Positions 11,167 to 64,000 of a stretch of 64,000 nt of DNA are shown piece after piece. Positions within the stretch are counted from its first letter, which is position 1. Each line of letters begins with the position of its first letter. The DNA is from Tubulanus polymorphus (taxonomy: Eukaryota > Animalia > Nemertea): NCBI RefSeq assembly GCF_964204645.1, contig NC_134031.1, positions 10,044,001 to 10,108,000 on the forward strand, given 5' to 3'. The translations under genes were made by a program, and so were the position numbers. Under the pieces are notes generated by a model, which ran no database searches, was not told where the DNA came from, and saw nothing but the letters and a program-made list of their open reading frames with translations.

Positions 11167-11253
11167 TTTTGTTTCATTTCTACCTACATGATAAGAGGAA
11201 CGCATATATCACCTAAAGTGGCTTTCTTGTTTTTCGGTTTTTCCGTTCTTCGA

Positions 11254-15704: not shown

Positions 15705-16697
15705 CTACAGAGGGTAAGCATGGATCAATTTCCCCTGCAGCACACCAATCAGCAGAATGACCCTATTTGGCATCGTAAATGGTACTTGTTGATGGCCGCT
15801 TAGATCCTGCGATAAAAGAGGCAGCCTGTTCCAAAAAGCCTGGAGCTGACAAGGATCGCTGGACAATGGCCAGGCTAGCAGATTAAACCACTGGCTGTTA
15901 GGATGATGCCGAAAGTTCCCCTGAGACAGAAGCGATGGGAAATTCAGAGGAATCCTGGGGTTGTCGCACAGTAGGTTGAGAAGTGGTAGGAAACATTCCT
16001 GAGCCGGCCAACATGGTGCTACCAGAACTATGTTGCAATTGACTGGTGTGGGCGGGAACGGATACGCATGCATCCCCGACCAGTCCAGAGAGAAGTCATC
16101 GACCCCCCACGCTTCCGCGTCTGGAAACGGGGAAACAAACAGAGGACACCTCCGATTGATCCGGGTGGCAAACATATCCAGTAGCGGATTGCCAAACATG
16201 TCTTGAACACTATTGGCTACTTCTTGGTGGAGAACCCATTCTGTCGCAATAGCCTGACCTCGACGAGAAAGAGTATCGGCCATCACGTTCCTTTTACCTG
16301 CTAGATGTTCCACAGTCAGGGAAACGCTCTTTGCCTGGCACCAAAGAAGAATTTTGGCTGACAGATCCGTGAGGATTTCTGTTGGAGTGCCCCCTTGATT
16401 CTGAAGGTAAGCCCTCACTGTTGAATTGTTCATGGCTAACCAAATGTGGTGGCTGTCCACTCTCCTGTGAAAGAACTTCAGGGCCTTCCACACGGCCAGC
16501 ATTTCCAGGAAATTTATGTGGTTGGTGGCCTGGTAGCGAGACCACCTCCCGGCTTTGACTCGGTTCTCCAGATGTGCCCCCCACCCTTGGTGACTGCCAT
16601 CCGTGAATACCTGAACTGGAGCCTCTAACGGGGCTAGTGACATCCTTAGCCGAAGACGAGTAACGAGCTGTTCCCGGGGTCGTGGGCACTCCCGCAA
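15705..16697 (-). pseudogene. DIRS RNase H plus Dam-like methyltransferase domain
   Basis: VFTDGSHQGWGA, HINFLEMLAV, HLAGKRNVMADTLSR (RNase H); LDMFAT, DDFSLDW, AYPFPP, LVAPCWP (MT-like). Confidence 0.88.
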
Positions 16698-16710
16698 CAG
16701 CTTCTTGAAG

Positions 16711-17410
16711 TTAGGCTACTTGAGCCATGGATGGAAAGACTTTGCCGATTCTGAGATCGAAGTCCATGCCGAGATAAGTGAACTGTTGAGCCGGTGTCAA
16801 CTGAGAATTTTCCCTGTTTATCCGGAACCCTAGCTGATGGACTAAGTCCAAGACTGAGGTAAGTGCCTCCCGACATTCTTGAGCCGAGTTCGCGACAATT
16901 AACCAGTTGTCGAGATAAACGAACAGTCGAACACTCCTGGACTGGAGTACCTTCTGAACGGACTTGACCAACTTGGTGAAAACCACTGGGGCCGTACTGA
17001 GGCCAAATGGAAGGGACCTGAATTGGAACTGGCGGCCTTTGCCTTTATCCAGAGAAATCGCCGAGATTTTGGGTGAATTGGAACCTGAAAGTAAGCATCT
17101 TTCAGGTCCAATGAAGCCGTCCATTGACCTGGACGGAGCCCTTGAATCACGTCCTTGGGTTTGGTCATCCGGAACCTTGGAATGTCTAGGTGCTGATTGA
17201 GGGATGACAGATCTATCACCTTCCGTTGACCCCCTGTGGCCTTTGGTACCATGAATATTCGGGAAAACCGGCTGGGAGAAGTTTCGTTGCAAACTGGTTC
17301 TATCGCTCCCTTCTCGGCCAATTCCTTGCCTTAGAAAACAGAGAGGGTAGCCACGAGAGACGACCCGGGAGGACCAACTGTCTCCAGAAAGGTCGGACCA
17401 GTAGGTAACT
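16711..17410 (-). pseudogene. DIRS reverse transcriptase, frameshifted
   Basis: FSRIFMVPK, SLDLKDAYFQVPI, FQFRSLPFGLSTAP and YLDNWL (YLDD-derived). Confidence 0.9.
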
Positions 17411-20099
17411 GCCTGCTGCAGACAACCTCCCACTGGTCCCAAGAATTCATTTCGAGTTTTTCCGAAAGGAAGAGCCCCTTTTTGGAGCCTTCCCCTTGCC
17501 CCAATACGAACCGGAACTGTTATTACCAGACGAGGCTTGCTGCGATTGTTGAAGTTGCGTGCTAGTTCTCCAACCGAGAAAGCACTGAAGTTTGAGTTGG
17601 TCCGGTTTGCGTCCGTGTCGAACCTTGCGCCGCTGGCGTCCGACCTGAACGCTTTTTCCACGGAGTTCGGACGGTGGACTTGGTCTGGACCTCCCGAATC
17701 TTCCTAAGCTCGGCGGAAACAGGAGCGCACCAACCGGGGAAGAGATGTAAAGACGTCCCCAATGGAGCTCTCAGCAAAGTATTGGACACCATATCCGGTA
17801 GACGAGCTTTGGAGTCCATAACTGATTCAAGGGAGGCTAACACAAGATTAGCCTGACCCCGAACCGGCAATGTAATTACATGTGAACCAGACCAAGCCAA
17901 AGATTGGATAATCCGGTCCATTCCCTCTAGTTTTAGGGCATCTGACTCAGGGTCAGAGCCCCCATGGACGGTGGCGAGAGTTTCCAGAAGCTCACCTGTC
18001 AACCCCTTAAGTGCCAAATCCTGAAACGAACCAACCCTGGTAAGATTTCCAGGATTGGCGCCATGGCCACCAAACCGGACTTAGGTAAACGAATACCCGA
18101 CTGTGCTGAAACAGTATCTGGGCTGATCAAAGTATAATCAGCATCCAGGCAGCTATGACTATGATCCACAGCACCTGGAGTTGCATAATACGCCGAGCGA
18201 AATGCGCCTATATGTAGATCGGTTGAACTAAAATTTTCCAGATTTCATACCCCGTTCTGCAGGGGGAAACGAAAACGTTCCAGGGCGACATTCACCCCAT
18301 AATTGTGTAACTTATCGAGCCCATTCTCTTGAAACCGCTGACGATTCGCGTAAGACATTAAGATCAGAGTCCGGAGGGGGATAAGCTTCCATTAACTCTC
18401 CGAACAGAGGAGCTGCTATAGGCTGAGTGCGAGTTGCCCCGTGTTTGACAAAAAACTCAGTAATCATTGCTCTAAATGGCACGTCCCCCGCTGGTTCGGA
18501 TAAAACTGAACGGGACGGAGATACATTGCGAGCCAGGGAAGTCCCCATTGTATGGGGCAACCCAAAATTGCTTGAGGCAGGAACGGCCCCAGAAGGAATT
18601 TCCGGTTCTGGGACCGGATCCTCATTGGAATCAGACCCTACCCCAGCAATAAGGAATTCAGAGTCTGAATTCCGAATAACTGAGTGGGCTGGCGAACTTC
18701 TAACCAGACAATCAGGAATAGGCTTACCTGTTGTAGAAGTTGTAGCGACTTGTTGCGACGACGATAACAAGTTTAAAATTTTTTCTTCAAATACATGGAA
18801 ATCCTTCTGAGTCAGGAATTTCCCTGTATCCCGACGATCATGAAGACTTCGGTGACGGTCCCTCGAACGGGATCAATACCTGCTAGAAGAATCACCTTCT
18901 TCGCTTAACGACCTCGGTGAAGGACGGCGAAACTTTCTGCAATAACAATCATAATCCCTCTCGCGATCAATCCTTGATCTGCGAGAAGACCTGGCGCAAT
19001 TATTACCCTCACGGTGTCTGGACCTAGTGGGAGAGCAAGCTCTATCCCCGGAGCAACGATGACTATGATTCGAAACATCAGAATCAGACGATGTATAAAC
19101 CGGAAGTTTAGAACCAGGTGACATCTGGACCGGACCGGTGCCCGAACCAGACTGGACCGATACCGACCGAACCGGTGCCGACCGGCTTGTGCCGGTATAT
19201 TGACTACCGCGGCATGCGCTTGGTTCAGAACATATTGTCTGAACCGGATGAACCGGCTAAACCGGTGATCGACCAGCGACCGGTGCCGGAGAACTAGCGC
19301 TCCTTCCCTGTAGAACGGAGTTGGGAAGCTGACCGTGCAAGTACAATCGGGACCGCCTCGCTATACGATTTGAAATAGAATTAGAGATGTCGGTTGGCAC
19401 GCCAGAAACCGACGAATCCTGACTACCCGACGACGATCTTTCAGCTTCCAAGCCTTATCAGCCAGAATCCAAAGGTCCTCGGACCAAACCTCGCAAGTCT
19501 TGCAAGGATTACTCCTAGAACAGACTTGGCCAGATTTACGCCTACACGAGGCACACGAAACGTGGTCATCCCAGGCACCGAATAAATGTCCACATCCCTC
19601 ACCGCCACGATGCTGACCTTGGGAGAGGGGGCGGCATAATTATTCAATTAATCGGTCACAACAATGAATTAAATCAAATTAAATTAAATTAAATTAGTTA
19701 AATTATTTCGGGAAAAAAGAAACAAGGGATAGCCCCCAAACCGAACGGACTCACCATTACGAGTGATTACTCCCTTAACTTCCTAATCCCTTTGAATTTT
19801 TGGCGAAAAAATCCAACGCGTTCATATACAAGAACGCCAAGAAAAAAGATGGCGGATTTCGCTGGTGGCTTAACGCAATACCGCAGGGCCGGGTTGTATG
19901 AAAAAACCATTGGCGATCCATCCAAATTTAGAAAATATTGGCACAAACCATAGGAAAGGTTACAGTACTTGACAGAAATATCAGACCCCAGGACCATCTA
20001 GATGAAATGTGTGCCACCCATTTTACTGAAATTCGCGATAGGCAAATGGATTGGAAGCATGACGTCATCAGCTAGTGAAAGCAAAAGCAAACCACAGGT

Positions 20100-40291: not shown

Positions 40292-41482
40292 AACTAGGGG
40301 TCCAGGGACACCATGCCCACTTGGGAAGAGGTTTCAAATGCTCAACAATCTAACAGTTTCAATATTCAACGCCCCCTGGTGACCAAATACAAAAACCAAT
40401 GACCTTGAAACTAACCACAATCATAGAACATGTCAGCAGCTACAATTTTGTAATTGATTGTCATAACAAAATATGCCTCGTTACCAATTTAATATGGAAA
40501 TACTAAGTTATTATATTATTCAATGCCCCCTGGTGACCATATTCAAAACCCAATGACCTTGAAACTCACCATAATCATAGAACATGTCATGAACTACATT
40601 TTTGCAATTGATCATGGTTACAAAATATGCCTAGGTATCAATATAATAAGGAAATACTAAGTTAATCTACTATTCAACGCCCCTGGTGACCATATAGAAT
40701 AACTAATGTCCTTAAATTGATTGTTGTTACAAAATATGCATTGGCACGAATATAATATAGAAATACTAAGATATTGTATTATTCAACGCCCCCTGGTGGC
40801 CATATACAAAAACCAATGACCTTGAAACTCACCACGATCATAGAACACATTATGAGCTATAACTTTCTAATTGATAGTGGGAATAAAAAACGCTTAGGTA
40901 TCAATATAATGTGGAAAAACTTTTTCCCACCTATGAATGCGTACTGATGACCCCAAGATGGCCGCCAATTGCGTCATAATTGGCTGATCAAAAATACTTG
41001 TCCCAGGTATAAAACACCCTTTTCCAAAGAATACCCATCACAAATTGCAATGAGAAATGGTAAACCAGTAGGAAGCAACAGGACTCAGAAATTGACATTT
41101 TTGGGCACTAAAAAGGTCATAGGACGACCATCTTGAGTCCGATCGACCCAATATTTGTTATGCTGATGGGCACTGGGGGGATTCACATATATCCAAAAGA
41201 TCAAGGTAACTGATCGAAGTGTCTTCCAAATTTCCCTCAAAAAGTTCAAAAATGTGTAAAAAGTGCTGATTTTGGCGAACAACAATGGCTGCCAGTCGGC
41301 CATCTTGATTTTGACAGGGCCAATTTTTGGGCTGAAGATGTGTGTAGGGTAGATACATGTGTTATATATAGTTACATTGAAGCGTCTTCAAAACTTCCCA
41401 AAATAACTGGATTCCGTCTACGCACTGACGGACGAACGACGGACGAAAAGTGAACGCAATAGCCCGCTGGGACTAAGTGGGC
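40292..41482 (-). mobile_element. HINE family B, complete copy
   Basis: aactaggggtccagggacacc hairpin, sub-TIR gcccactt / aagtgggc, central tandem repeats, gacg microsatellite, ends at an A-run. Confidence 0.85.
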
Positions 41483-45019: not shown

Positions 45020-45547
45020 TGTAGGTGGGCACTACCGAAGTTGACAGATAAAATCATATCTAACCGATCCCAGGCATGTATACAATGTCTTGACTGGTTA
45101 AAACGAGGTCCAGGATGTTGGGCAAATCGTTTACCTGGTACGATGGTTGACATGTTGAAACCATCTAGTGGTCCAGATCCAGAGTTTGGTAGAGTATCGA
45201 ACATTCGCTAATATCGCTACATTTCTCTCCTCCATTAAATCATAACGCTTCTTAATACATTACTACCAGGGATGAGAACCAGGGATTATGAAAAAAGCGG
45301 GACTTTTGATGAAAATTTCTGTTAATTACTGAACTTGCAGCTTAACTGCAACATAGCCACTAAGCTCGAAGTGCCCATCATGATTTCTTCAACAGCCTTG
45401 TTTCAAATCTAGATGGCAGCACGAACTGGTCATTTTTTTTTACTGTAGTTTATATTGGCAATACCAGATGGCAGCACATAACAAAGACGCCGAAACATAA
45501 TGCCAGACACAGCAAACATTCCACCTCCATCAATTTCTCAACGGATC

Positions 45548-45668
45548 AGTAATTGGAATATCAGGCGTTCAGACCAGAGTACGAAATTACGACACACACT
45601 CATCACCAAAAGAAATTTCTTTTTCCAAAAAAGATAAAGATAATTTTTTCCTATAATAAATGGGAGAG
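45548..45668 (+). repeat. Polinton left terminal inverted repeat
   Basis: First ~60 bp differ by one base from the reverse complement of the right end; imperfect match extends to taattttttcctataataaATGggaga. Confidence 0.92.
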
Positions 45669-48142
45669 AGTGAACAACATACAGAAAAAATTGATGTTAA
45701 TGAAAATCAATATTATTGTATATGTTGTAAAAAATACATTGATAAATCTAATAAATCTCATCATGAAAAATCTGCAAATCATAAAAAACTGTTATAGATT
45801 TAAACTCCAGAAAATTCCAATGAATGAAAAGAACGATTAGAAAATATGAATGTGGATGAAATAAAATGTAATGTTTGTAATGAATTTATAGTAAAAAGGA
45901 ATTATAAAAAAACGTCTGGAATCACAATAACACAAACAAAATTTAAATAAAAATATTTTAGGCACAGAATATTTTGATGATAAACCTCAACAAGTAAAAA
46001 ACCAGCTTCAAAAACTAAATCTATTTCAAATAAACCTTATATGGAAAGTGTTAGAAATTATATCGATTCACTAGAATTAAAAGATACAATTAAAATTTTA
46101 GAAAGATTACGTAGAAAAATTGGTCCTGCAGCTACTATATTAAGATTTATTAAAGGTACAACGATAGAAGATTCAAGTAAATTTATTGAAATAATGGAAA
46201 AAATAATGGACTTTGTTACAGATGTTGAATATCCAAAAATTAGTATTTCTGGAAAAGTAAGTTTTATAAAATCAGAAGAAAAAATGGATTATAATATTCA
46301 AACACATTCTGAAGAAATAATTTCAAAAACACAAATAAAAGAGAAGTTAAAAAAAATATTTAATGAATTTTAACGTCATATTGAGGGAAGATATTTTGAG
46401 GGTTCTGGTTTAACATTGAATGAAATTATATTTTTAGATTTAAATGTTAATAATACAAAAAGAAATAAAACATCAAAAAGTAATATAATGTTTAAAATGA
46501 TTCAAACTTCACAACAGAAAAGGATATTAAAGCATCAAGTTATGTTAAATTACCATTTACAACAAAAGCAGTAATAAATGTTCAAAATGAAGATAATAAG
46601 TGTTTTCTATGGTTAATTATTAGTTGTTTACACCCAACAGAAGATATTACGCATCGTTTTAGATTAACAGATTATCGAAAATATGAAACATTATACAAAA
46701 TTGATCAATATCCAGTAACTATAAAAATGATTCCTAAAATAGAAAAAGTGAATAATTCAAAAATAAATGTATTCGAATTAATGCAATTACCAGATACAAA
46801 AGGTGAAAATATTAAAGATTATACATTAAAAGATTTCTATTTAACAGAATATTATGATGATGAAAACGTTATAGATTTGTTATATTACAAAGAAGATGAA
46901 AATGAACATTTTATGTGGTTAAAACAAATAGATTTATTCTTTAGGACAGAAAGTGATCACCATAATAAGATTTATCTATGTAGAAAATGTTTGTCGAAAT
47001 TTATGACTGAGAATGCATTATTAAAACATAAAGAATTATGTGATAATGAAGACTTTTGCAAATTAATAATGCCAACAAAAAAAGATTGTAAGTTGAAATT
47101 TATCAATCATAAATTTAAAAATATAGTACCATTTGTAATTTATGGGGATTTTGAATCGTTGAATAAAGAATTAACTGATCAAGATAGAAAAGAAACATAT
47201 AACAAAAAGCAATTTCTAAAATCAATGGACAAAGGAAATGAATTAAATGAAGACATAATTCAAGACCCACCAATTATAAATACAATTAAAAAAGTTCATC
47301 AAAGAGCTGCTGCTTATAGAATTTATCTAAAATCAAATTATCCTGAATTATATGAAAGTCAATATATTTCTTTTAGAGGTGAAGATGTAGTAAATGAATT
47401 TTGTAATAAAATAATTGAAATAGAAAATAATTTTGCAAAATTATTAAACAAAAATAAAAGAATAGTTATGACAAAAGATAAAATTTATTTTAATTATGCA
47501 ACCCATTGTTGTTACTGTGAAAAACGTTTTTATTCATTTGATTAATATTGAATTAATTAAATCTAAACCAAATTGTTTTAATTTAAGGCAAGTAGAAAAA
47601 GAATTAACAGAAGAAGTTATATAACCAAACAGATTATGTTTATGATTTATCAACTGAAGATGGAACATTCAATTCTGGGTTCCCATTAATAGCAGTCAAT
47701 ACAGATGCATACATACTCAAGACAAATGACATAACAAAAGACTTAAATTAAAAACATTAAAACATCATTTTAATTTTAGCAATTATCCAAAAGATCATGA
47801 ATTATTTAGCAATGATAATAAAAAAAATTCCTGGTAAATTTAAAGATGAATTAGGGGGTGATGAAATGATTGAATTTGTTGGGATAAGAAGTAAAATGTA
47901 GAGTTATAGAACAAAAGATCATGAAGCTAAAAAGTTAAAAGGAATAACAAAGCATGTGGTTGATAAACATATAGAATTTCAAGATTATATAAAGTGTTTA
48001 TATAATTCAATTGTAATGAAACATAAAATGAATTGTTTAAGATCAGAAGTTGTACATTAATGAAGTTGAAAAACCAGATCCATTCGACGATAAAAGATAT
48101 ATTTTGGGTGATGGAATAAAAACATTACCGTATGGCCATTAA
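45660..48142 (+). pseudogene. Protein-primed family B DNA polymerase with N-terminal zinc fingers; frameshifted, large internal deletion
   Basis: SSYVKLP, INVQNEDNKCFLW, CRKCLSKF...HKELC, ExoI PFVIYGDFES, then a jump at ~47550-47690 to FSNYPKDH, PGKFKDEL, FVGIRSKM, KLKGI and PFDDKR...TLPYGH*. Confidence 0.92.
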
Positions 48143-48416
48143 AACAGAAAATCAATATCATCATACTCGAAATCACTATTGGTTTCTTCATATTCATTTA
48201 ATTGTTTAGGTTCTTACATTTCATTTTTCTCATTTAAACAATTCTATATTATTCCACATTTCATCTCGCTCTCTTTGTTTCTTTTTGTTTGTTAATTCAT
48301 CAAATGGAATTATAATATCGATGTTTAAAAAATTTACAATCTTATTTAAAAAGAATTCATAATTAATAATGTTTGTGAATGTTTCTTTTATATTTTCCAT
48401 ATCTTCTTTTGTTAAT

Positions 48417-49374
48417 TTAGGTTTTTAAATTTAAATACATTTTCTTTTCTTTTGTGTTACATGTTGATGGAATAATTGTTTTTATTATATCTTTCTTAGT
48501 TATTTCACCATTTTTATTTTCTATCATTTTCATTTTTTCAAGCCATTGCTTATATTCTGGTGTATGATCTTCCATAGAAAATATCTTAAAAATTTCATCT
48601 AGATATTTTAATTTTGGTTCTATAAGAATATCTCTAGTTTTTTCATCACCCCATAAATTTCTTTGCCATCCACATTCATTACAAAATATCACAGAATCTT
48701 CTTGTATTAAATACCTATAAATACATTGTGGGCATTTTTTTCTATCATATCTTGGTAATAGATCTTCATTAAGTTCTTGGTATCTTCTTACGTTTTCTTT
48801 ATGTTTTATTGTTTTATTATGTAGATTTGAATTACTTTTTGTAATAATCAATTTACAATATTTACAATAATATGATTTTCGTACTTATTCATCATATTGT
48901 TTTTCTAACTTTTCAAGTGTTTCTTTGTTATCTGGTAATGTTTTCTCGTATTTTATTTTTTCTTTCATTGAATTCTGTTTCAAATTTATTAGAAATTTTA
49001 TCTATATGTGCTTTACGAAATTGATGATTCTCCCAATCTTCTTTATTTTCAGGGTTATATCTTATTCGACAAGGCTCACAGAAATGAAATTTTATATTAT
49101 TTTTATCATAAAATAGAGTAGGTCTTTTCCAAATAATTTCAGGTTCAGTTTCAACAGAATTATTATTACTTTCGTTACTATCAACATTAGCCGTTGAGTC
49201 ATCAATTTTACACTTCTCTGAATGCTTTTTAACATAATTTCTTGAGAATAATTTATCACAATTTGGGCAGTTTATTCTAGGGGGTTTGTAATTTTTATCA
49301 CGATTTTTCATACGTCGAATCATATTACTTTTTCTTTGAAGTTCACCACAAATTTATCCTATCTTCTCATCCAT
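48417..49374 (-). pseudogene. Cys/His-rich zinc-finger gene(s) of the Polinton, function unknown
   Basis: CPNCDK...HSEKC, CEPC...HQFRKAH, CKYC...H, CPQC...CNECG; TAAATG start at 49374. Confidence 0.65.
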
Positions 49375-49443
49375 TTATTTAGGAAAATTTTTTATTAAAA
49401 TTAATTTTTAATGGTTCGAGGTAATTTTTTTGTGTTATAAATA

Positions 49444-50194
49444 ATGGTTGAAATTAAAGAATATAGAATATTTGTTGATAACAAATTATAAATCTCATAA
49501 TTTACAAGAACAATTAGATAGAGAATTTAAAAATTGTGTTGATCTAAAATTAGTTAATATAAGTTTATGTAACTCATTTTACAATATATCGGATAAAAGT
49601 CTAGAACATAGTTCCTTTATAATTTTAAATAAAAAAATTGATAAATGGTTTCGTATTTATCTAAAACCAGGATTATATAATTTAGAAACATTAACAAAAG
49701 AAATTAATAGAAGAGCCCAGCTTTTTTTAGGTGTGCTGGATTTAATATACAATTTCTAAAGGGTAATAGTTCTAATAAAATGAAAATAAAGTTAGATAAC
49801 TCAAATAAATATCTTTTCAAGGTTGGAAAACCTATAGCTAAACTGTTAGGTTTACCTCCATTTGATATTTTTTTCAATAGGAAGCTATGAAAAAGGTAAC
49901 ACAAATATAATACCCTTTACACACTTTTATATTTATTGCAATTCAATTGATCCTACAAAGACATTTGAAGCAACTAAAGATACAATTTGTAATTCTAGTT
50001 TATTCAATATTTTACCACTGAAGAATGTTAAACAATTTGGAACACAAATAAATTATAATTTAACTGAATGTGATTTCAAACCTTGTATTTCCAAATTTAA
50101 TAATTTTAAATTAGAAATAAGATATCATAATGGTTACTTAATTGATTTAAATAACTTTCCTGTGACATATGAATTAGTTATAAGATGTAGATAG
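49444..50194 (+). pseudogene. Minor capsid protein (penton, single jelly-roll), frameshifted
   Basis: NSFYNIS, LKPGLYNLETL, HFYIYCNSID...LFNILPL...FKLEIRYHNGYLIDLNNFPVTYELVIR pattern typical of Polinton minor capsid proteins. Confidence 0.72.
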
Positions 50195-50213
50195 TAATTT
50201 GTTTGATATATAA

Positions 50214-50553
50214 ATGAATATAACAGTAGGACCGAGTATATGTTTTGGATTTGATTTTAAACTTGAGAAAGAAATGAAATTTGACATTAATGATGTAATT
50301 ACACATATCAAAAATATTGCATTTTCTAATGAAACAACATTTGAATATGAAACAACAAATAAATAAAGAAACTTTTAACGTAGAAAAGATTACTGATTTA
50401 ATTAGAGTCTTTAAGATTTTATGGATTAGACGAAGATTTTATCATTAATGATATTAAAAAAATAATAACTGAAATATACGAAGATGAAACTAACAATATT
50501 ATAAATATTGAAATAATTATAACTAAGATAAAAAAATATTTTGAAGATAGTAA
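50214..50553 (+). pseudogene. Small hypothetical Polinton gene
   Basis: TAAATG start, coding-like sequence with a frameshift; no motif recognised. Confidence 0.45.
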
Positions 50554-50568
50554 TTTTTTTCTAAATAA

Positions 50569-50786
50569 ATAGCGGATCAGTAGTGGATAATAACTGGTTT
50601 ATATAATGGAGCATTATTATCAGTGGGAACTGTTGGTTATACAATGGTATTTAAAATGGGAAGTAGTAATGTTGATAAATTTGATATCAATGATATTTTA
50701 AAATTAACATTAGCAGTAACTTTATCTAATTTAAAAATTGATTATTTAGAAAAACAAAAATATATTCCTCCTATATAAATGCATAA
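50569..50786 (+). pseudogene. Small hydrophobic Polinton protein, start codon decayed (TAAATA)
   Basis: ITGLYNGALLSVGTVGYTMVF...ILKLTLAVTLSNLKIDYLEKQKYIPP. Confidence 0.55.
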
Positions 50787-50801
50787 TTTTTTACTAAATA
50801 A

Positions 50802-51180
50802 ATGGCATCTGCAATTATAACTATTATAGGATCAGCAATCGTTAACGCTTTAGCAATTACAGGTGGTGGTTATTTATTTAAGCATATTGATAAAAATAGT
50901 TCATTAGCAGAACAAAGAAGACATAACTTAGCATTAGAGAAATACAATAAAGCAGCAGAAGAATATAGAGAAAAAAGACAAAACTATATGGATTATATCA
51001 ATAAAGAATTATATAATCAGAAAAATACACATAGAGATTTTCAATCAGTTGATGAAGCTATGAGTTTACATAACGCAGTAACAAATAAAGAAAAATTACA
51101 TCTATATAAACCTAAATTATCAGATTATTATACACCAAGTAAAGAACAACAACAATATGAAATAATTTGGATTTTAGGTG
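50802..51180 (+). CDS. Polinton membrane/coiled-coil protein, 3' end broken by an insertion
   Basis: Hydrophobic N-terminus MASAIITIIGSAIVNALAITGGGYLF, helical EQRRHNLALEKY core, and the start of a second hydrophobic segment IIWILGG. Confidence 0.75.
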
Positions 51181-51975
51181 GAAGGCGTGATGATCAAAGC
51201 AAACATTTGAGCGTCAGCTGTTGCTCGGTTTTTGTATAGCGTGCGTGCTTGACTACGGACACGCCGATGACCTCAATTCATTTCTCTGCCTACAGAGACG
51301 CGGGTGACCTCGCGTGGAATCTAAGTACACAGTTGCAGTTTGATAAGACCCCTCCCTTTCCACAACGCGCACGTACTAAATGGATAAACCCAACTTACAT
51401 TTTTAGTAGTAGAGATTACTGCGATGTGAGCATTGGCTGTTGCTTGGTTTTCTACAGAGACGCAGGTGACCTCAATTCCCCTCTGCCTGGGGAATCTAAT
51501 AGTGGAGATTACTGTATGTATTTGAGCTCACCACAGCGCCAATCCCTTAACTAAGAAAAGAGCAAGCTCACCACAGCGCCACTTCCTTAACTAAGAAAAG
51601 CGTGCCAATCAATTCTTCTTAGAATCACCGAGATTTAATAGCCTGATTTGTCATTGTTGTCGGATTGAAAGGTATGAAAGAGTGTCATTCATTGACAGTC
51701 ATACGATGTCGTTGGGTCTTTAGAAGTCATGTTAAAAACCGTATTCAATTGTTCGGAATGGAAAATGAAACCAATTCAATACCCATGATCGTGTTACAGT
51801 ACTCACCCTTCAAAAACAAACAAAAACATAGTTTACAGCAAAATATTGTAATACTTTTTCTCCTCTTTGATATTTGTTTCTTACTTATAGTGTAGATTTC
51901 ACATCGACAAAAAAATGTTATATTATTTTTATCCACACCTTAGTGATTTATTATATTCCTGGCGGACGGGTACTT
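51181..51975. other. Higher-GC non-coding insertion of unknown class
   Basis: Abrupt composition change; internal direct repeats (ctacagagacgc.ggtgacctc; gctcaccacagcgcca...ccttaactaagaaaag). Ends approximate. Confidence 0.55.
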
Positions 51976-53471
51976 TGCTTGTTTAATATAAATATAAATA
52001 ATTCTGATTTTAGAACAAACATTGGAACAATAAGATCACTTCCTTGCCCTAAAAAAATTGCGGAATATTGTCCACCTTCCTTACCAATTAATAGTTTTTA
52101 CAATATATATAGTCATAAAATAGGTTATGGTAAAATAGAAACTTTGGATTTAAAAACATTAAATTTCAATAAATTACCGGAATTTTATGATAATTTAAAA
52201 CAAGAAAACAATAATGGTTGGGTTTTTTTATTTTAGAAAATAGTGAAAGTTTTACTAAATCAGGTATACAAAGAATAAATCAATCAATTAGAACTTATTT
52301 GATATGTATTCTAGGTGCACAAGTTGAAACAAGATCACCGATAATTGGAAATTTGAATACATCATTCGATACACAAAAACAATTTAAAGTTTTATTTGAA
52401 GATTCTATTCATAATGATAAAAATAGATCAATTCCAGAAAACGTTGTAAGATATCAAAATTATTTAGATAAATCACATGTAAGATTAAATTATTGTATAG
52501 GCCCTAATTTATTAATTATTTCTAATGATTTAGTATTAAAAATGGGAAATATAATTCATTATAATAATCTTATTAAAACTGCAACAATAAATAATAAGTT
52601 AGGATTAAATGATATAAATAAAAAGATTCCTTGCCCTAAAAAAATTGCGGAATATTGTCCACCTTCCTTACCAATTAATAGTTTTTACAATATATATTAG
52701 TCATAAAATAGGTTATGGTAAAATAGAAACTTTGGATTTAAAAACATTAAATTTCAATAAATTACCGGAATTTTATGATAATTTAAAACAAGAAAACAAT
52801 AATGGTTGGGTTTTTTTATTTTAGAAAATAGTGAAGGTTTTACTAAATCAGGTATACAAAGAATAAATCAATCAATTAGAACTTATTTGATATGTATTCT
52901 AGGTGCACAAGCTGAAACAAGATCACCAATAATTGGAAATTTGAATACATCATTCGATACACAAAAACAATTTAAAGTTTTATTTGAAGATTCTATTCAT
53001 AATGATAAAAATAGATCAATTCCAGAAAACGTTGTAAGATATCAAAATTATTTAGATAAATCACATGTTAGATTAAATTATTGTATAGGCCCTAATTTAT
53101 TAATTATTTCTAATGATTTAGTATTAAAAATGGGAAACATAATTCGTTATAATAATCCTATTAAAACTGCAACAATAAATAATAAGTTTGGATTAAATGA
53201 TATAAATAAAAAGATTATTACTGCTCCAAAACTAATGGAAGGTGAAAATATTAAAAAACATATTCAATCAACAGAAACTAAAACTAAGAATATTAAATTG
53301 AATAATGATTCTAAAATAAAAGATTACAATACTACAGAAAATATAAAAACTGATAATATTCAATATGAAATAATTAAAAGTGATAATGATAATAAATCAC
53401 ATGAAAATACTAAATTAGCTATTACGTGTATAGGAATTGTAATAGGAGGAATATTTTATATCAAATTTTAA
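51976..53471 (+). pseudogene. Hypothetical Polinton protein with C-terminal transmembrane segment; contains a ~588-bp tandem duplication
   Basis: FTKSGIQRINQSIRTYLICILGAQ...FDTQKQF occurs twice; ends HENTKLAITCIGIVIGGIFYIKF. Confidence 0.75.
52040..53216 (+). repeat. Tandem duplication, 2 x ~588 bp
   Basis: 52040-52626 is repeated from 52627 with few substitutions. Confidence 0.95.
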
Positions 53472-53487
53472 TTCTTTTATTATATAA

Positions 53488-56054
53488 ATGGATGTAGAAG
53501 GTGGAGAAGATATTGGAATGGATACTTTCGATGAACCCGGCATAACTGAAGAACAACACCTGATTTTAATGATACAAGTTTTAATGACGGTAATAAGCCA
53601 GAATATAATAATAATTTAAATATGCCTGATTATATTTAAAATGCAGAATCACAATTAGATCCTGAAAATTTAGATCCAGATTTAGTATAAGAAGATTTAG
53701 ATAATTCAAACAAAATACCTAAATTAGAACATATAATTGAAAATTCTAAACTTAACATAAATGATGAAGACGTTGGACCTTTAGCAGATCAATTAAAATT
53801 TTTAGATAATGGTAAATGGTATTATCATTTGAAAAGTGATTATTATATTGATATCACTTATAAAAATAATAAAAATAACATATTAACAAAATCAACTTTG
53901 AGTGATTTAGATCCAGATAGAATTAAAAGAATTAGTAATAGTAATGTAATAACTGATGTTTTAAAACAAGAATTAACTGATAATGATATAGACGTATTTA
54001 AACAAAGAAGTAATGAATTATTTGAAATAATCAAAAAGAAATCCGAAACAGAAACAACCTCTGAACGGAATATAACTTCCAAAACTAGTAAACTCAAATC
54101 AAATAAAGTTCCAATTGAAAAACTTTTACCGAATGGATTAATTGATGCAACGGATCGAGAATTAGAAGATTTAAATATATTTTCTGATAAAGCAATTAGA
54201 GAAATGATTGGTATAAGAAATGAAGCTGATAAATTTGCGCATGAAAAAAGTAAGAGATTTTAAAATAAGAACTTTAAAAAAAGAAAAAAACTGATAAAAT
54301 TAAAGAAATAGAACAATTAAAATAAGATAGACATAATAAAGTTATTGAAGATATTGAATTTAACAAGAGGACCATAAGGTCCATATGATCGAAGACAGAG
54401 CATGAGGAGATATCAGTTTTAGTGAAAGCAATTCACGTGTTTCCAGGGTTTCTTTTAACAATTATGGACATTTTCCCCCAGACAAAAGTGGTCCTATTTT
54501 CTCAATGTCATGAAAAATTCTTTGAGGAATTGTGAAAATAAACTGATTATTTTTTTTTCTAAAGACATTAAAGTGTTCTTATTTTAGTTTCTTTCAATAT
54601 AACGATCTTTTTCAAAAATAATATACGTGGATCTACATTCCCTAAAAAGCATAACGTAATCGTTCCAGACATCCTACCCACCCTATTTCCCATAATGGTA
54701 TAGTCCACGCGTTAACCAATGAAACTGTGTTCTCTGTGCGTATGATGCTTCAATGAATGAAATTCATGTGACAGGTACTACTACTAGTGGTAATTTTTAT
54801 TTACCAAAGACCACATGGTAACATAGGAATGCACTTTAAATGGCTCTAAAAATCCTCAAACTTTCCCCTTTGCCTTGGGCTTGACGGCTGATGTGCCGAC
54901 TTGGCATAGATACGCTTATACAATTTTTTCCAAATAAAGAGAACTGACATTTTTTAACAATCACAGAAGCCCTGCGTATCTCACTATATCTTTTTTTCTA
55001 GTACCATGCGCCGAACAGTTTATCTTTCGTCAGTCAATCTGAGTCGGCCTGTGTTTATACGAGGCGGGACACAGCCACTTGTCTCGCTGTGTGTATACAG
55101 CACTGCTGTCTCTAGTCTACTATTACATGTACTATAACTCACTCGTACTTAGTACGCGAGCACCTGTGAGGATAGTGATGGGGATAACACTTCATTGCTG
55201 AGTAAAATCGATATAGACAATTCACTGATATGGTTAGCCCTTGGTGCGCCTCAAAACTTTCTATAATTCATCACGATTTTGGGACCCTAGGTACAACAGG
55301 CTATGATGTTCATAGCTAGGATCATGCATATAGGCAAATGACGCGTTACAGACAACTTTTTATTGGATTATCAGTTCTATATCGATACAGCATTGTGGGA
55401 CTATATCCATGGCAACAGAGATACTACGGGTGTTGTTCGGTGAATGGCAGAATTTTTACCAGCGACGATCCCTATATGGTCTTCGACCATGAAAAAAGAA
55501 ATGCATATTTAGAAAAAAAAATTGATGATTTAGAATATAACATAGAATTTCAAAAAGAAGAAATAAAATTATTATTGAAATCATATGATTGTAATATTAA
55601 TAGATTAAAAGTTACTTTTAAAGATTTGTTGATAAAACCAAATTCTGAAATATCATTGGAAGATAGAATAAAATTATTATTTATTATTTAGAAGGTATCA
55701 CAATTCTTTCAATTCTAACAGCTGTAACTATGTTATTTACAACAATTGGTTTAGCTATTTCAAATTCATTAAAATCTACGCCTACACCCAATAAATCGGA
55801 TAAACCTCCTAGTCATAATAATTCTATAAAGGATAAAGTTAGAGATGGATTTAAAAAAATTAGCAAAATATTTATGGGAACTATCTAAAAAATCTGCTGC
55901 AGCTTTACCCGGAATTATTGCATCAATTGTTGGTTTTGTTTTAAAATCTGCTGGGAATACTCTTAACTTTGCTGCTGAACATATTACTTTATTTTTAATT
56001 ACAGTTGTAAGTGCTATTATTTTTGGGTTAGTGAATATGATAAAAAATAAATAA
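53488..56054 (+). pseudogene. Large acidic/coiled-coil protein with C-terminal membrane helices, interrupted by a HINE
   Basis: TAAATG start; acidic N-terminus; LEDRIKLLF...GITILSILTAVTMLFTTIGLAIS...SAAALPGIIASIVGFVL...AEHITLFLITVVSAIIFGLV. Confidence 0.72.
54362..55490 (-). mobile_element. HINE-type element (family C)
   Basis: aacaagaggaccataaggtcc hairpin; sub-TIR atgatcgaagac / gtcttcgaccat; inserted at AA/TT. Confidence 0.72.
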
Positions 56055-56074
56055 TTAATTTTTTTGTTAAATAA

Positions 56075-57669
56075 ATGAGTGGGAGTTATATAAATCCTTC
56101 TAAGAATTCTAGAATATCTAATGCTATTAAGGCAGAGAAATCTCATCATATAATTACTCATAATCCTTCTAATATTAATCCTGATGAAACTTTATATGTT
56201 AGAATCCCGAGATTAAATCAAAAGACCTTTTATGTTCCCAATAGTATCTATTTATCAGCTGATATAAAAGTAACTGATCATGATAATAATTATGTTGTTG
56301 ATAATGTTAGAAGATATTTGATTAAAAAATTAATTGTAAAGATTGGAACAGAAACAGTTTTTTCATTAGATGATTATAATTTATTTATGCATTATAAAGA
56401 TTTATGGTCAACAAAAGAAAATAGAAATAATATGATTTTTCAAGGCATCCAATCCTTAAATCAAAATAAATTAAGATCAGACGCTGATAACGCAATAGTA
56501 GCTAATGCTGTAGATAATTTAATAAAAAAGGTTTATGGTAGTAAATATAAAATTCCATTAGATTTTGAATTGATAAATAATAATGCACCTTTATATAAAT
56601 ATGTTATACAAGAAGATATTATATTTGAAATAACATTTGCTCCTGTTAATGAAATTGTATTTTCTAGCGTTGTTAAAGATATGGGTTATAAATTATCGAA
56701 TATATGTTTAGAATATGACACAGTAACTGATGAAAATATTGCTAGCATAATTCAAACTCAATATCATCAAGGATTTTCATTATTATATGATTATATTGTA
56801 ATAATATGATTTTTCAAGGCATCCAATCCTTAAATCAAAATAAATTAAGATCAGAGGCTGATAACGCAATAGTAGCTAATGCTGTAGATAATTCAATAAA
56901 AAAGGTTTATGGTAGTAAATATAAAATTCCATTAGATTTTGAATTGATAAATAATAATGCACCTTTATATAAATATGTTATACAAGAAGATATTATACTT
57001 GAAATAACATTTGCTTCTGTTAATGAAATTGTATTTTCTAGCGTTGTTAAAGATATGGGTTATAAATTATCGAATATATGTTTAGAATATGACACAGTAA
57101 CTGATGAAAATATTGCTAGCATAATTCAAACTCAATATCATCAAGGATTTTCATTATCATATGATTATGTTGAAAAATTTAAAATTGTAACTATTAAAGC
57201 AAATGATGAAATAATTAATGAGAATATTAACTTCCCAAGAAGATCTATTAAAGGCGTATTAATATTTTTTACCATTGCAACATATTCTAATGGTGCAATA
57301 AATGTTGATAATTATTATAATCCGGAAATATCAAAAGTAGAAATAACAATTGAAGGCATAGCAAATGAGATACTTTGCCAAGGAATGAGAATGATTTTAT
57401 GAATGAATAAGTAAAATCATTTGAAAATTGTAAAATTAATCAAATTGATTATTATACCGGTAATAAATACGCATTATGGTTAGATTTAAGAACAACAGAG
57501 GATAACTTATTACATGGTTCTGGGAAAAAATTACAAAATACAAAAGACGGGATACAATTATTCATGAAAAAGAAAAAAAGGAGGTTTAAATTATAAAATG
57601 CATATTTGTATTATATCTGACGCGCAATTAAATATTATAAATTCTCAATTAGATAGTATTCAATATTAA
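56075..57669 (+). pseudogene. Major capsid protein (double jelly-roll), disrupted by a 374-bp tandem duplication
   Basis: ITHNPSNINPDETLYVRIPRL, YKIPLDFELI, YKLSNICLEYDTV, YYNPEISKVEITIEG, KYALWLDLRT...LHGSG and ISDAQLNI; size and position fit a Polinton MCP. Confidence 0.8.
56426..57168 (+). repeat. Tandem duplication, 2 x ~374 bp
   Basis: aataatatgatttttcaaggc...atgattat at 56426 and again at 56800. Confidence 0.95.
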
Positions 57670-57699
57670 GAATATAAAGTTAAAATCAACGATGTATAA

Positions 57700-60600
57700 A
57701 TGGGGGATAAAAAAACTCGAAATACTAAAGAACAATATTTAAGAAATTTATATTATAACCCTGAGAGTTCAGTTGCTTATTCTTCTACCAAAAGTATATG
57801 GCGTCAAGTAAAACAAGATAAATTAGATAAGATAATCCCAAAAAATTTAGTTAAATATAAAGATATAAATGATTTTATGTTAGAACAACCAACATATACA
57901 ACACATAAAAAAATTGTTAGAAAATATAAAACTCGTAAAACTATGGTAAGTTATGTAGATCAACAGTGGCAAGGAGATTTAATTGACATGAAAAATCTTA
58001 AAAAAGATAATAATGATTATTGGTGGATATTGAATATAATTGATATTTTTAGTCGTTATGTATGGAGTTTTCCACTATTCAGAAAAGATGCAGTACAAAC
58101 ATCAAATGTTTTAAGAAAATTTCTTTTAGGTGGTAAAATAAAGCCAGAAAAAATACAATTTGATGATGGAAAAGAATTTTGTTATTCATCTGTTCATGAA
58201 CTCTTAGACTATCATAATATTAAAGATATTTCAACAAAATCGGATAAAAAAGCAGCAGATGTTTTACCGCAATTGATAGAAGGTTATAATAATTCTTATC
58301 ATTCTTCTATTGGAATGTACCTATTGATGCCAGAAAACCTGAAAATGCTGAAATTGTTTGGAATAATTTATATGGGGCATTTCTTTTAAAGTTGGTCAAA
58401 ATGTAAGAATTTCTAAGTATAAAAAGATATTTGATACGATCGTAATTTTACTAGAGAAATATATAAAATTTAGATGGTGAAGAAGTTGATGGGTACATTT
58501 ATGAAGAAGAATTAAGTTTAACTACTGAAAATCTAGAACAAGAATATAAAAATGAACAAGAGCCCCATGGGGCACAATGGCCAGCCAGTCAGATTTGCTT
58601 TTTATAAATGATGTAATCTGTGGGTTATATTTATCAATATACACTCCCTGCTCAATATCATTTACATAGTAAAATCGTGTGTTAACACAGACAGCAGGAA
58701 CGAATGTAATATAGAAATACTAAGTTATTGTATTGTTCAACGCCCCCTGGTGGCCATAAAAAAAAACAATGAGCTTGAAACTCACCTCGATCATAGAACA
58801 TGTCATGAGCTACAACTTTCCAATTGATTATAGTAGCAAAATATGCTTAAGTATCAATTATGATGTGGAAAAACTTTTTTTCCACCTACGAATGAGTACT
58901 GATGACCCCAAGATGGCTGCCAAGTGCGTCATAATTGCCTGGTCAAAAATACCCTCTCGGATATAAAAGATCCCTTTCCAAAGAATACCCATTACAAATT
59001 GCAATGAAACATGGCGCACCATTAGAAAGCTACAGTACTCAGAATTCAGGCCAAAATTGACATTTTTGGGAACAAAAAAGGTCACAGTACGGCCATCTTG
59101 AGTCCGATCGACTCAATTTTTCTCATGCCGATGGGCCCTCGGGGGATACAAATATATACGAATGATCAAGGTTATTGATAAAAGTGTCTTCAAAATTTCC
59201 CTCGAAAACTTCAAAAATGTGTAAAAAGTGCTGATTTTGGCGAACAACAATGGCTGCCAGTCGGCCATCTTGAATCTGACAGGGCCAGTTTTTGGCCTGA
59301 AGATGTGTCTAGTGTAGATACACGTATAAAACAAATATCAAGACATTACCTTGAAGCGTCTTCAAAACTTTGGAACTCTCACGAACTATCTAGATGGTTA
59401 TCTCTCGACCTCAATAGCTTCAAGACCCATCTCAAAACAACTTTGTTCCATGCAGCATACCATTAACTCTCGGAAAGCGAATTGTATTTAACATTTTTTG
59501 GCAGAATAAAATTTGATTGAATTTGCAATTCGGGCACATGGCTAATTAGCATATCAAGGTCACACACCCGATTTGGTAAAACCTTTTTTCGCGAACCTTG
59601 CGCAATTGTCAAGGATGAATTTTCTGTAGAGCAAATAAAATTCCTCCCAAACACCAAATCAACTAAAGATTTCATAGAAATCGATCTTGAAATACAATTT
59701 TAAATCTTAAAATAAAACCCGGAAGTAAAACAGTAGACGATACCGCGTATTCACGTGAACACCTGATTTCTGTAAACGAAATGTTGGTTGTGACAAAATT
59801 GTTCAGACGGTTTTAGGTGGTAATAAGTACGGAAACGTAACGACCATGGTCGACTTATTCGATGAAATCAGGCCTATGTGATATCCAAATTTTGACTTTT
59901 TTATTCTCCAGACCTCCCTGATATAGAAATAAAAAATTTTGGTGGTACGAAAGTGCAATCACAGCGCCGATGGGGACAGAGCCGTGTCAGAGATCGGCGG
60001 AGTGAAAATTGAGGTGGACGAACACGAAGAAGTAGGCTATTGCGCTACTTGAATCACGAAAACTCCTGGCGCGGCCCTGACGCTTTTCGTTGATTAAGTA
60101 ATACAAATATCATGCAATGGGTTTTCACAATCTACCGCTGGTATTTACCGGATTTCAATATCACTCCAAAATTCAAAGAAACCTCGAAATATCGAACCGG
60201 AACACTTCCGGTAGATATCCGCGGCTGCCCAACCGGGAAACTTATTTGTTTCAATAGATATTGATAGGATCCATCATCTTCACCCGTCAAGGGATTCGAA
60301 CCCACTAAGCTAAAGCCATGCCAGAATCGGCCGGGCCAATCACAGCGCTTGTTACAAACCACATTAGGCTTCTGTGGAATTTCCCAGTAAATGGGCCAAT
60401 CAGCGAACACGTAGCGAACGCGGAAGTATTGTCGCGTGTTGATACATGACGTCATGCGCAAAAGCGCCAGTAATGAAATCGCGATAATTCACGTGAACAG
60501 CTGCTGATATTTTCAGATAAACCAATCACAGGGAAGACACAACTTCCTGATTGGCTGATAAAAATTGAAATTTTCCCGATTTAACTTTCGTGAAAAATGC

Positions 60601-60900
60601 AGAAAACATTTTTATGAGACCCTATTTCAAAATTCTGCTCGCTACGATTCCGAGAATGGATTACGCTTAAATACGTGATTTGTTCGAATATGCCCTCACT
60701 TGGCAAGCAAAAGAGCCTTTTGTGTGGAAACCATGTCATTTAAATTCGCTCCATTTGTATAGTAATAGGCTCAGCCTACGGCTGGCCTAAAAAGTATTAA
60801 AAACAAAAACTGTTAATAGAAAAAAATATTCTTTAGTAAAATTGGTTGGATGGCCAGATAAATTCAATGAATGGATATTATCGAGTAAAATTAAATATAT
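57700..60900 (+). pseudogene. Retroviral-like (rve) integrase with C-terminal chromodomain, interrupted by a HINE
   Basis: LYYNP, WQGDLIDM, IDIFSRYVW, IQFDDGKEF, YNNSYHSSIGM; segment with the catalytic Glu is missing; LVKLVGWPDKFNEWI after 60790. Confidence 0.9.
58555..60789 (-). mobile_element. HINE family A composite with nested HINE-B fragment (~58700-59370) and L2 3' fragment (~59370-59465)
   Basis: aacaagagccccatggggc...taggctcagcctacggctggccta; internal segments match families A and B. Confidence 0.8.
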
Positions 60901-60904
60901 ATAA

Positions 60905-61867
<963 letters not shown>

Positions 61868-61869
61868 AC

Positions 61870-62041
61870 TCAACTAGCTTGTTAATCTATTATATCTTTA
61901 GTTACATTCTAGTTGAATTCTAGTTATTAGTAGTTGAAACAGAAATCAAATAAAATTCAACACGAAATAAATAAAAACAATAATATTTCAACTAGCTTGT
62001 TAATCTAGTATATTTTTAGTTACATTCTAGTTAAATTCTAG
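61870..62041. repeat. Two ~54-bp direct repeats with hairpin potential in a Polinton intergenic region
   Basis: tcaactagcttgttaatcta...tttagttacattctagtt.aattctag at 61870 and 61988; tcaactag / ctagttga inverted. Confidence 0.8.
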
Positions 62042-62075
62042 CTGTAACAACACAATTAATTTTTTTGTTATATAA

Positions 62076-62590
62076 ATGGGAGGTGGAAAGAAAATAAAAT
62101 CTAAAAATAGTGATGTTCCAATTGAAAAAACTTTGGATGATTTAGGTATTACAGAAACAAAATTAACACCAGATAATAATGGTGCGTTAAATGATATTAC
62201 TACAAACAATAATTATGAATATTATCTTTATTGCAAACATCAATTAGAAATGTTAATAGCATCTGGGAAATTAAAAAGTTTTATTATTAAAAATTTAACT
62301 TATAATGAATAAGATACAATAAAATTACTAAATTATTTAAGATTTATGAAACTGCGAGAATAGCTAGACTCAATGATGCGATATCAGAAACTGTATTAAA
62401 AGGTTATAGTAAATTATGTAAATATATGCTACCAATTCAAGATGAAAATAGATTATATTCCGATTTAAAAAATGATTATTAAGTTATGACTGAATCAAAT
62501 AAATGGATTGGATATTTATCATTTCAATTAGGTGGATTTATGACATTTATCAACTGGAGTTATAACATTTTCAAATATTGAAAGTAATAA
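62076..62590 (+). pseudogene. Hypothetical Polinton protein
   Basis: TAAATG start; LEMLIASGKLKSFI...IYETARIARLND...LPIQDENRLYSDLKND; stops and frameshift. Confidence 0.6.
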
Positions 62591-62604
62591 TTTTTCTACA
62601 ATAA

Positions 62605-63265
62605 ATGAGCAAAGTGGAAGAGGTGAAAGGATTAACTGTGAAGAAAAAACCGAGATCACAGAAACAAATTGAATGGTCTCGGCAATAAGGAAGGCAATAA
62701 GAGAATTTTAAAAAGCTATAAAAGAAAAAATAAATAAAGATATTAATAAGAATTTGGCCACTAAAAATGTCATAGGACGGCCATCTTGAGTCCGATCGAC
62801 CCAATTTTTCTTATGTTGATGGGCCCTTGGGGGATTCAAATAGATACAAACCAGCAATGTAATTGATAAAAGCGTCTTCAAAATTTTACTCGAAAACTTC
62901 GAAAATGTGTAAAAAGTGCTGATTTTGGGAAACAACAATGGCTGCCAGTCGGCCATCTTGAATCTGACAGGGCCAGTTTTTGGCCTGACGATGTATCTAG
63001 GGTAGATACATGTATAAACCAAATATCAAGACATTACCTTGAAGTGTCTTCAAAGCTTCCCAAAATAACTGGATTCCGTCTACGGACAGACGAACGCTAC
63101 GACGGACGGAAGAAAAGTGAACGCAATAGCCCGCTGGAACTAAAGTCCCAAGTGGGCTAATAAAAAATCAAATAAAGTTTACAATATTAATAATTCTGAA
63201 ACAACTACTATCAAAAATTAAAAATAAAAATTCCAAAATTTACCATAAAAAAATGGATTAATGTT
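62605..63265 (+). pseudogene. Small basic Polinton protein interrupted by a HINE-B fragment
   Basis: TAAATG start, MSKVEEVKGLTVKKKPRSQKQIEWSRQ; end approximate. Confidence 0.45.
62752..63158 (-). mobile_element. HINE family B fragment
   Basis: Matches ~41090-41482, including the gacg microsatellite and gcccgctgg...aagtgggcta end. Confidence 0.82.
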
Positions 63266-63528
63266 TCAGAAAAAAAGCGAAAAAAAAAAAATTTTCATTT
63301 TGTATCAATTAAATATCTCACTACTTTTGTCTATCTATGCGGAGCAATTTAATTGTCGAGATAAGTCATTTCGAATTCTTAATATTTAATTAATTTTATT
63401 ATCAATTTATTTTTTCAATCAACAATTTCTAAATCATGATGACCGTCTTCATTTTTTCCATGATAGATAATTCTAAATCCTTCTAAATCTTTTAATTCCT
63501 CTGTACTCAATGAAACCCATTTATAAGG

Positions 63529-63741
63529 TTAGAATACTTTAAATTCTCGCGTTGTACTAACATTACAGTAACTTAAATTTGCTGATATTTTATCTCCATA
63601 TTTAGTTTTTATCTTTTCTAATTTTAATATTTTATGTTCAATTTCTTTTGTAACATCAACTAACTTTTTTATTTCAAATTGTTTTTTTGCTGGTGTTATT
63701 CTGTTATTTATTGCCGCTAAGAATGCTTTTCTATCTCCCAT
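63529..63741 (-). CDS. Terminal inward-pointing Polinton ORF, unknown function (probably extends further left, decayed)
   Basis: MGDRKAFLAAINNRI...; start codon lies within the extended right TIR. Confidence 0.5.
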   Translation of the reverse strand: MGDRKAFLAAINNRITPAKKQFEIKKLVDVTKEIEHKILKLEKIKTKYGDKISANLSYCNVSTTREFKVF

Positions 63742-63856
63742 TCATTATAGGAAAAAATTACTTGTGGTGATCAGTGAGGAAAAAAAAATTACTTGTGGTG
63801 ATGAGTGTGTGTCGTACTTTCGTACTCTGGTCTGAACGCCTGATATTCCAATTACT
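63733..63856 (-). repeat. Polinton right terminal inverted repeat
   Basis: ...tggtgatgagtgtgtgtcgtactttcgtactctggtctgaacgcctgatattccaattact; contains a short internal duplication ggaaaaaa.ttacttgtggtgat. Confidence 0.92.
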
Positions 63857-64000
63857 CAAATCTGGACAATTTGGAAAGCTTGTCTTTTTTAATCATTTCT
63901 CATCACAAAAAGCGGGAAACTGCCAAAAAGCGGGAAATTCTCATCCCTGACTACAATCGTCAAAATTGGTAAATGTTCAAAGATGAAATGGTGATCATAA

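Follow-up and report, generated by a model that had tools for sequence, protein, structure and literature searches.

A probable virus-type promoter signal at the gene starts of a nemertean Polinton-like element and its possible reading by a helper virus

Are the Polintons of multicellular genomes autonomous nuclear viruses, or are they helper-dependent virophages? This question is raised by a decayed Polinton-like element that is integrated in the genome of the nemertean Tubulanus polymorphus and lies within a 64,000-nucleotide stretch of contig NC_134031.1 (RefSeq assembly GCF_964204645.1, positions 10,044,001 to 10,108,000, forward strand), hereafter the window, whose numbering is used throughout. 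The preliminary description of this stretch had noticed TAAATG at nearly every gene start of the element, mostly behind a run of T, had likened it to the late promoter of poxviruses and had proposed transcription by a co-infecting large DNA virus. The start signal is indeed real and conserved, its layout resembles that of poxvirus post-replicative promoters, and it very probably is a virus-type post-replicative promoter; the accompanying idea that its T-run might be the poxvirus early terminator TTTTTNT was not supported.

Each of the ten exact TAAATG hexamers and three near matches that had been listed was found where it had been placed. These 13 starts were taken over from that list and not called independently; tblastn alignments from intact relatives begin at residue 1–4 for the starts at 50214, 50569, 50802, 56075, 60905 and 62076, the integrase alignment begins 27–30 nt inside 57700, and the start at 45660 is without a homology anchor. 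TAAATG was not enriched in bulk over a shuffled background: the element-derived DNA (13,131 nt) contains 32 copies, where shuffling gave 24.9 ± 5.0. The enrichment is one of position, with TAA standing directly before ATG at 10 of the 13 starts but at only 22 of the 481 remaining ATGs (p=7.5e-11). Runs of four or more T at −24 to −8 occur at 9/13 starts versus 104/481 other ATGs, and both features coincide at 7/13 versus 5/481. As an independent check, all 2546 ATGs of the window were scored with a weight matrix whose 24 training starts came from distant clades, that of the window being left out; 10 of the 12 ATG starts fell within the top 19.

The signal recurs in relatives. Of 22 related loci that were fetched 15 were used, and their starts were called without reference to the motif, which avoids circularity; the counts leave out L018–L022, whose matches are partial and decayed, as well as L002 and L013, which are near-duplicates, and 23 open reading frames were dropped from the start set as shadows, 5'-open or short. 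In these intact relatives 52 of 70 starts have TAA before the ATG, against 81 of the 2132 remaining ATGs, and the signal is kept in three other well-supported capsid clades. The 52 TAAATG starts share a common anatomy: A occupies −18 in 79%, the proportion of T climbs from there to 77% at −13 and 94% (49/52) at −12, and C and G together make up at most 4% per position at −18 to −12 versus 17–31% at −11 to −8. A free spacer follows at −11 to −7, after which A is found at −6 in 75% and at −4 in 85%, and G directly follows the ATG in 73%. The T peak consequently sits 9–10 nt upstream of TAAAT. Five head-to-head gene pairs, whose ATGs are separated by 19, 24, 28, 28 and 30 nt, each accommodate two signals, and T at −12 is kept in 14/14 divergent starts, so that the functional unit fits into about 19 nt adjoining the start codon. 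The core comes in two variants: capsid starts have mainly a T-rich core (T count 4–6 in 9/11), ATPase starts an A-rich one (4/4).

This arrangement can be compared with published accounts of vaccinia virus. In its late promoters, according to a review, TAAAT lies on the start codon, mostly with G as the next letter, and the 10th nucleotide upstream is a conserved T, whereas intermediate promoters are AT-rich 15–19 nt upstream, with a T thereafter (PMC11980589); the core is given elsewhere as about 20 bp with T residues, a 5–7 bp spacer and TAAAT(G/A) (PMC5294985). With this published wording, rather than with vaccinia sequences, the element's signal agrees within one nucleotide: the TAAAT initiator on the ATG, an A/T core upstream that has its conserved T some 10 nt ahead of the initiator, and the free spacer are all present. 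Motifs of other systems were not enriched upstream of the starts, namely AAAATTGA, ATNTGA (6/61 versus 213/1909), TCTA and the baculovirus motif DTAAG.

A mundane view, that the signal is no promoter at all, deserves attention at this point. Chance in AT-rich DNA would suit the near-shuffle bulk count of TAAATG, yet the signal persists in loci of 36–44% GC (9/11 starts versus 8/363 other ATGs). Stop–start coupling was rejected, as the TAA of the signal serves as the upstream gene's stop in only 1 of 34 tandem pairs. A polyadenylation signal, AATAAA, does overlap the start, but in 23/52 cases and is therefore not the invariant. The terminator version draws on the coding-strand depletion of TTTTTNT (12 versus 36.8 ± 4.4; ratio 0.33 versus 0.57–0.73 for other T5 contexts and 0.74 in unrelated viral loci); A-runs, however, are depleted in coding strands as well (0.70–0.81), and the T at −12 of every divergent start stands against it. 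We do not read TTTTTNT as a terminator because it occurs within 60 nt of only 2/12 convergent ends; the T-run rather appears to be the promoter core. Taken together, a non-promoter origin of the signal is most improbable. As an observation on the coding strands of L001–L014, T-runs of at least five occur at about half and TTTTTNT at about a third of the expected frequency, with no matching 3' terminator.

Who, then, reads the signal? By analogy with virophages, we give a probability of roughly 0.5 to the reading that the promoter is used by the RNA polymerase of a co-infecting helper large DNA virus. It is favored because the same late signal stands on the polymerase and VLTF3-like genes, none of the early motifs tested is enriched, poly(A) signals are not enriched, and an initiator that lies on the ATG calls for a leader made by slippage. 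AATAAA follows stops in 22/58 cases versus 18.8 ± 3.3 expected, and 3/12 versus 2.8 ± 1.5 at convergent ends. Slippage at a TAAAT-type initiator yields 5' poly(A) leaders (PMC6211774), and such leaders are reported in the sources consulted for viral and virus-like element (VLE) polymerases (PMC6211774, PMC7163114). The mechanism, which would apply to active ancestors and relatives of the dead window copy, could run as follows: Most genes are preceded by the two-part signal, A/T only from −18 to −12 and ending in T, with the free spacer between it and the TAAATG that covers the start codon. If vaccinia is a guide, the first A of TAAAT would be the transcription start, slippage of the polymerase would add a 5' poly(A) leader, and the mRNAs would have no defined terminator. 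Such a leader would place A, not T, at −3 of the mRNA; as had been argued, translation context fails to explain the signal, T standing at −3 in 52 of 61 starts. First transcription would need factors from outside the element, as in mavirus and Sputnik, because the polymerase gene (matrix rank 6) and the VLTF3-like gene (rank 1) carry the late-type signal themselves and enrichment was seen for none of the early motifs tested. The late machinery of the helper might then be biased or amplified by the VLTF3-like protein that the element itself encodes. The helper may or may not be a poxvirus, and the antiviral role that had been suggested would be conjecture.

The VLTF3-like gene also allows a helper-free route. 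The last piece of this broken zinc-finger gene (48233–48424) matches PF04947 (Pox_VLTF3) with E=1.8e-6 and 28.2 bits, above the cut-off of 25; the fragment had been missed in the preliminary description and is, tentatively, a new point here. The assignment is tentative because the intact homologue P0293, which is 56% identical to the window piece, gave no PF04947 match whether searched whole or in part, and the PDB gave no VLTF3-like match for either. In the autonomous alternative, such a factor would act in the nucleus, where it would redirect the host's RNA polymerase II to this virus-type promoter, being started by packaged factor or leaky transcription. It gains from precedents, as VLTF3 has been published for a subgroup of polintons (PMC11131425) and mriyaviruses, which are described as having VLTF2 and VLTF3 while RNA polymerase is absent, are presumed to be nuclear (PMC11253617). 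It suffers from the missing match on P0293, from the absence of any VLTF2 match among the 37 proteins of relatives, from the lack of AATAAA enrichment after stops and from an ATG initiator that needs the slippage-made leader reported for the viral and VLE polymerases just cited; moreover, the factor's own gene holds the best-scoring copy of the motif, which creates a start-up problem. We regard this route as rather unlikely, if conceivable.

As a third possibility, the signal would be read by a linear element of the cytoplasm that has a pox-related polymerase of its own, comparable to the yeast pGKL pair, and not by a virion-forming helper. Promoters of pGKL are described with a TAAAN initiator and slippage-made poly(A) leaders (PMC6211774), but their upstream element ATNTGA belongs to the motifs that were not enriched, a partner of this kind was not seen among the sequences searched, which did not include a whole genome, and we consider such a reader very unlikely.

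Several observations weigh against a helper, and against a poxvirus-like one in particular. Besides the helper-free route just described, the integrase start at 57700 is without the core and ranks only 157th of 2546 in the matrix scan. TAA before ATG is not exclusive to poxviruses: it occurs at 12/46 starts in six giant-virus-labelled loci versus 23/199 starts in 22 other viral loci, all of which were chosen by one pattern match. A helper search by pattern scan returned 28 single-match loci, none with family-level density of the motif. As to lineage specificity, the comparison set was without canonical Maverick or poxvirus DNA controls. Coral polintons, some with VLTF3, are reported to be expressed in ordinary samples (PMC11131425), although these were compared by description and may belong to another family. 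Finally, two relatives, L015 and L016, are without TAA before ATG at 8/8 starts.

These two loci point to a possible promoter switch inside the family, from TAAATG to TATA. TATA lies within 20 nt of 7/7 distinct starts versus 27/206, in a post hoc test with small n, and L015 and L016 sit on a long branch of the capsid tree, which has a midpoint root only. TATA is also found at 26/52 TAAATG starts; TATAWA at −90 to −26 accompanies 10/52, a figure given without a background rate. The gene set of L015:1-2488 and L016:1-3179 is the same as in the family.

Sequencing reads show the window element itself to be a single dead member of a family with many copies: in run X5, which bears the same species label, depth on the element is about 110–910 versus about 5 on the flank, the reads are mostly 85–95% identical to it, and many of them skip the insertions at 54362–55492 and 58554–60789. 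Runs X6–X10 gave only short scattered pieces of the element and have no bearing on its expression. The inverted arms at 45531–45626 and 63778–63873 are 96 nt long and 88% identical, and the flanking 6-mers match at 4/6 positions. The canonical Maverick/Polinton set is present: a polymerase gene, an rve integrase, an A32 ATPase, a double jelly-roll capsid and terminal inverted repeats. We take the polymerase gene to encode a DNA polymerase B of the protein-primed type (pPolB) from its motifs; a Pfam search gave no polymerase match on 45660–48140. No RNA polymerase gene was found among the window pieces or the 37 proteins of relatives, the locus L003 being without the polymerase end of the element, and Pfam gave no cysteine protease match in the window pieces or L003 proteins, where a divergent one could be missed. 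The coordinates are collected in Table 1.

Table 1. Features of the element in the window, with the evidence for each
Feature	Coordinates	Strand	Evidence
Polinton-like element, integrated and decayed; contains host insertions and internal duplications	45548..63856	.	ends read by eye
Start signal (T-core and TAAATG) of polymerase gene	45641..45662	+	matrix rank 6/2546
Broken gene, presumably protein-primed DNA polymerase B	45660..48140	+	tblastn, relative's C-terminal piece to 47748-48133
Broken zinc-finger gene, last piece resembles VLTF3 (tentative)	48233..49374	-	PF04947 match
Start signal of VLTF3-like gene	49372..49393	-	matrix rank 1/2546
Near-match start signal	49425..49446	+	preliminary site list, coordinates confirmed; matrix rank 874
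Start signal, small conserved gene (~127 aa in relatives)	50195..50216	+	tblastn, matrix
Near-match start signal, small conserved gene (~76 aa in relatives)	50550..50571	+	tblastn
Start signal, 140-aa gene with hydrophobic ends	50783..50804	+	tblastn; matrix rank 2
Broken conserved gene, start gone, 588-bp internal duplication	51982..53471	+	counterpart in L003 has 442 aa and a hydrophobic segment at the C-terminus
Start signal, predicted membrane-protein gene (53488-56054, interrupted at 54362-55492)	53469..53490	+	tblastn, reads
Start signal of major capsid gene	56056..56077	+	matrix rank 5
Broken double jelly-roll major capsid gene, 374-bp duplication	56075..57669	+	homologues, model of intact homologue
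TAAATG without T-core, at the start of the rve integrase gene (57700-60901, with an interruption at 58554-60789)	57681..57702	+	PF00665 E=5.6e-11
A-rich-core start signal, A32-type packaging ATPase (60905-61867, internal microsatellite)	60886..60907	+	PF04665
Start signal, conserved gene (~207 aa in relatives)	62057..62078	+	tblastn; matrix rank 4
Start signal, conserved gene (~131 aa in relatives), host repeat interrupts	62586..62607	+	matrix rank 7
Near-match start signal within right end, mirrors polymerase start region; gene 63418-63741	63739..63760	-	matrix rank 19

An intact capsid homologue was modeled as a double jelly roll with a predicted local distance difference test (pLDDT) score of 82, and Foldseek with this model returned capsids of large DNA viruses and virophages at 8–14% identity, with large DNA viruses at the head of the list and an entry from an adintovirus in 17th place; the capsid thus has no close solved or predicted relative. 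The gene at 49444–50191 is a candidate minor capsid gene by its size and position alone. Scans of viral contigs with the capsid gene, the capsid alignment, the ATPase, the 442-aa protein, the integrase and the zinc-finger piece found no relative, nor did phage records; among genome contigs the capsid had no match, and a single locus, L023, which is decayed and GC-rich, was recovered.

The 442-aa protein represents a fourteenth gene, the start of which was removed in the window by an insertion. In the intact form (L003:2996-4324) it has a C-terminal hydrophobic anchor and a conserved core, and it counts 1321 homologous clusters, many on long contigs, but matches no Pfam family; its structure model is unusably poor (pLDDT 44.7). 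Five of the real genes in L003:2014-10343 have predicted transmembrane segments, one being SLATT-like, and would fit a membrane-containing particle. Deoxynucleoside kinase genes (PF01712) at L003:10340-10981 (-) and L007:2895-3377 (-) are 27% alike and absent in the window copy; their homologues indicate no donor. Profile matches in the flanks of the element are only to retroelements and a zinc-ribbon, and indicate a repeat-rich eukaryotic host. The retroelements at 8694–12172 (-) and 15705–19360 (-), with matches to reverse transcriptase, endonuclease and RNase H, are presumably LINE-type and DIRS-like, respectively. A very high-copy host repeat lies at 40298–41434, 58697–59370 and 62753–63096, two of these copies inside the element.

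For the question of autonomy versus helper dependence, a 20-nt signal with an exactly predicted 5' end has the merit of being experimentally tractable, and it offers a pattern with which to look for a so far unseen large DNA virus. Were the autonomous alternative true, a small integrating element would run a poxvirus-type promoter on the host polymerase via one factor of its own, which would be about as informative on the origin of large-virus late transcription. The most far-reaching interpretation is that of a widespread, undescribed family of integrating virophages in animal genomes whose promoter code would be that of a pox-like virus of aquatic habitats still to be discovered, and which brings a late factor of its own that hijacks this virus, one sublineage having switched to a TATA (asfarvirus-like) code, such that the promoter predicts the helper; as a whole this is doubtful. 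A literature search found no title on a TAAATG motif in Polintons, and subscription journals, Repbase and bioRxiv supplements, which lay outside its scope, may hold the family or the motif. The word 'promoter' occurs 0 times in PMC11296320, PMC11131425, PMC8502044, 10.64898/2026.06.19.733378, 10.64898/2026.10.13.758929 and 10.1101/2024.03.23.586382.

How does the element compare with known systems? Unlike vaccinia virus, it is an 18-kb integrating element in which no RNA polymerase gene was found, has the late-type signal also on its polymerase and integrase starts with no early class detected, and is known here from sequence alone. With vaccinia late and intermediate promoters it shares TAAAT(G) on the start codon, a 5–7 nt spacer and both T-rich and A-rich core variants.

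Mavirus, like the element, has pPolB and an rve integrase. It is also described as integrating (PMC10328495), and promoter sharing of small DNA viruses with their helpers has been documented for Gezel/PgVV, mavirus and Sputnik (10.1101/2022.07.28.501842; see also PMC10328495). What the element would have in common with mavirus, Sputnik and the Polinton-like virus (PLV) Gezel-14T/PgVV is the scheme of a small double jelly-roll virus with its genes under a large virus's promoter (10.1101/2022.07.28.501842). It differs from them in the motif, TCTA and AAAATTGA being those not enriched in its family; they have protist hosts and Imitervirales helpers, and the element's capsid is only about 10% identical to that of mavirus.

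Closer to animals, PLVs have been found in entomopoxvirus occlusion bodies, and AHEV_PLV1/2, CBEV_PLV1 and Ca_PLV1 are animal Polinton-like elements proposed to parasitise poxviruses (PMC11296320). Compared by their description there, these have a cysteine protease in 4/4 and an rve integrase described in none, the reverse of the element. From animal Mavericks/Polintons it is set apart by the undetected cysteine protease, by several predicted membrane proteins and by the deoxynucleoside kinase of two relatives. With these Polintoviricetes, including the VLTF3-bearing coral polintons, it shares, as far as their published descriptions go, terminal inverted repeats, pPolB, rve integrase, A32 ATPase, double jelly-roll capsid and the presence of many copies (PMC11071308, PMC11131425).

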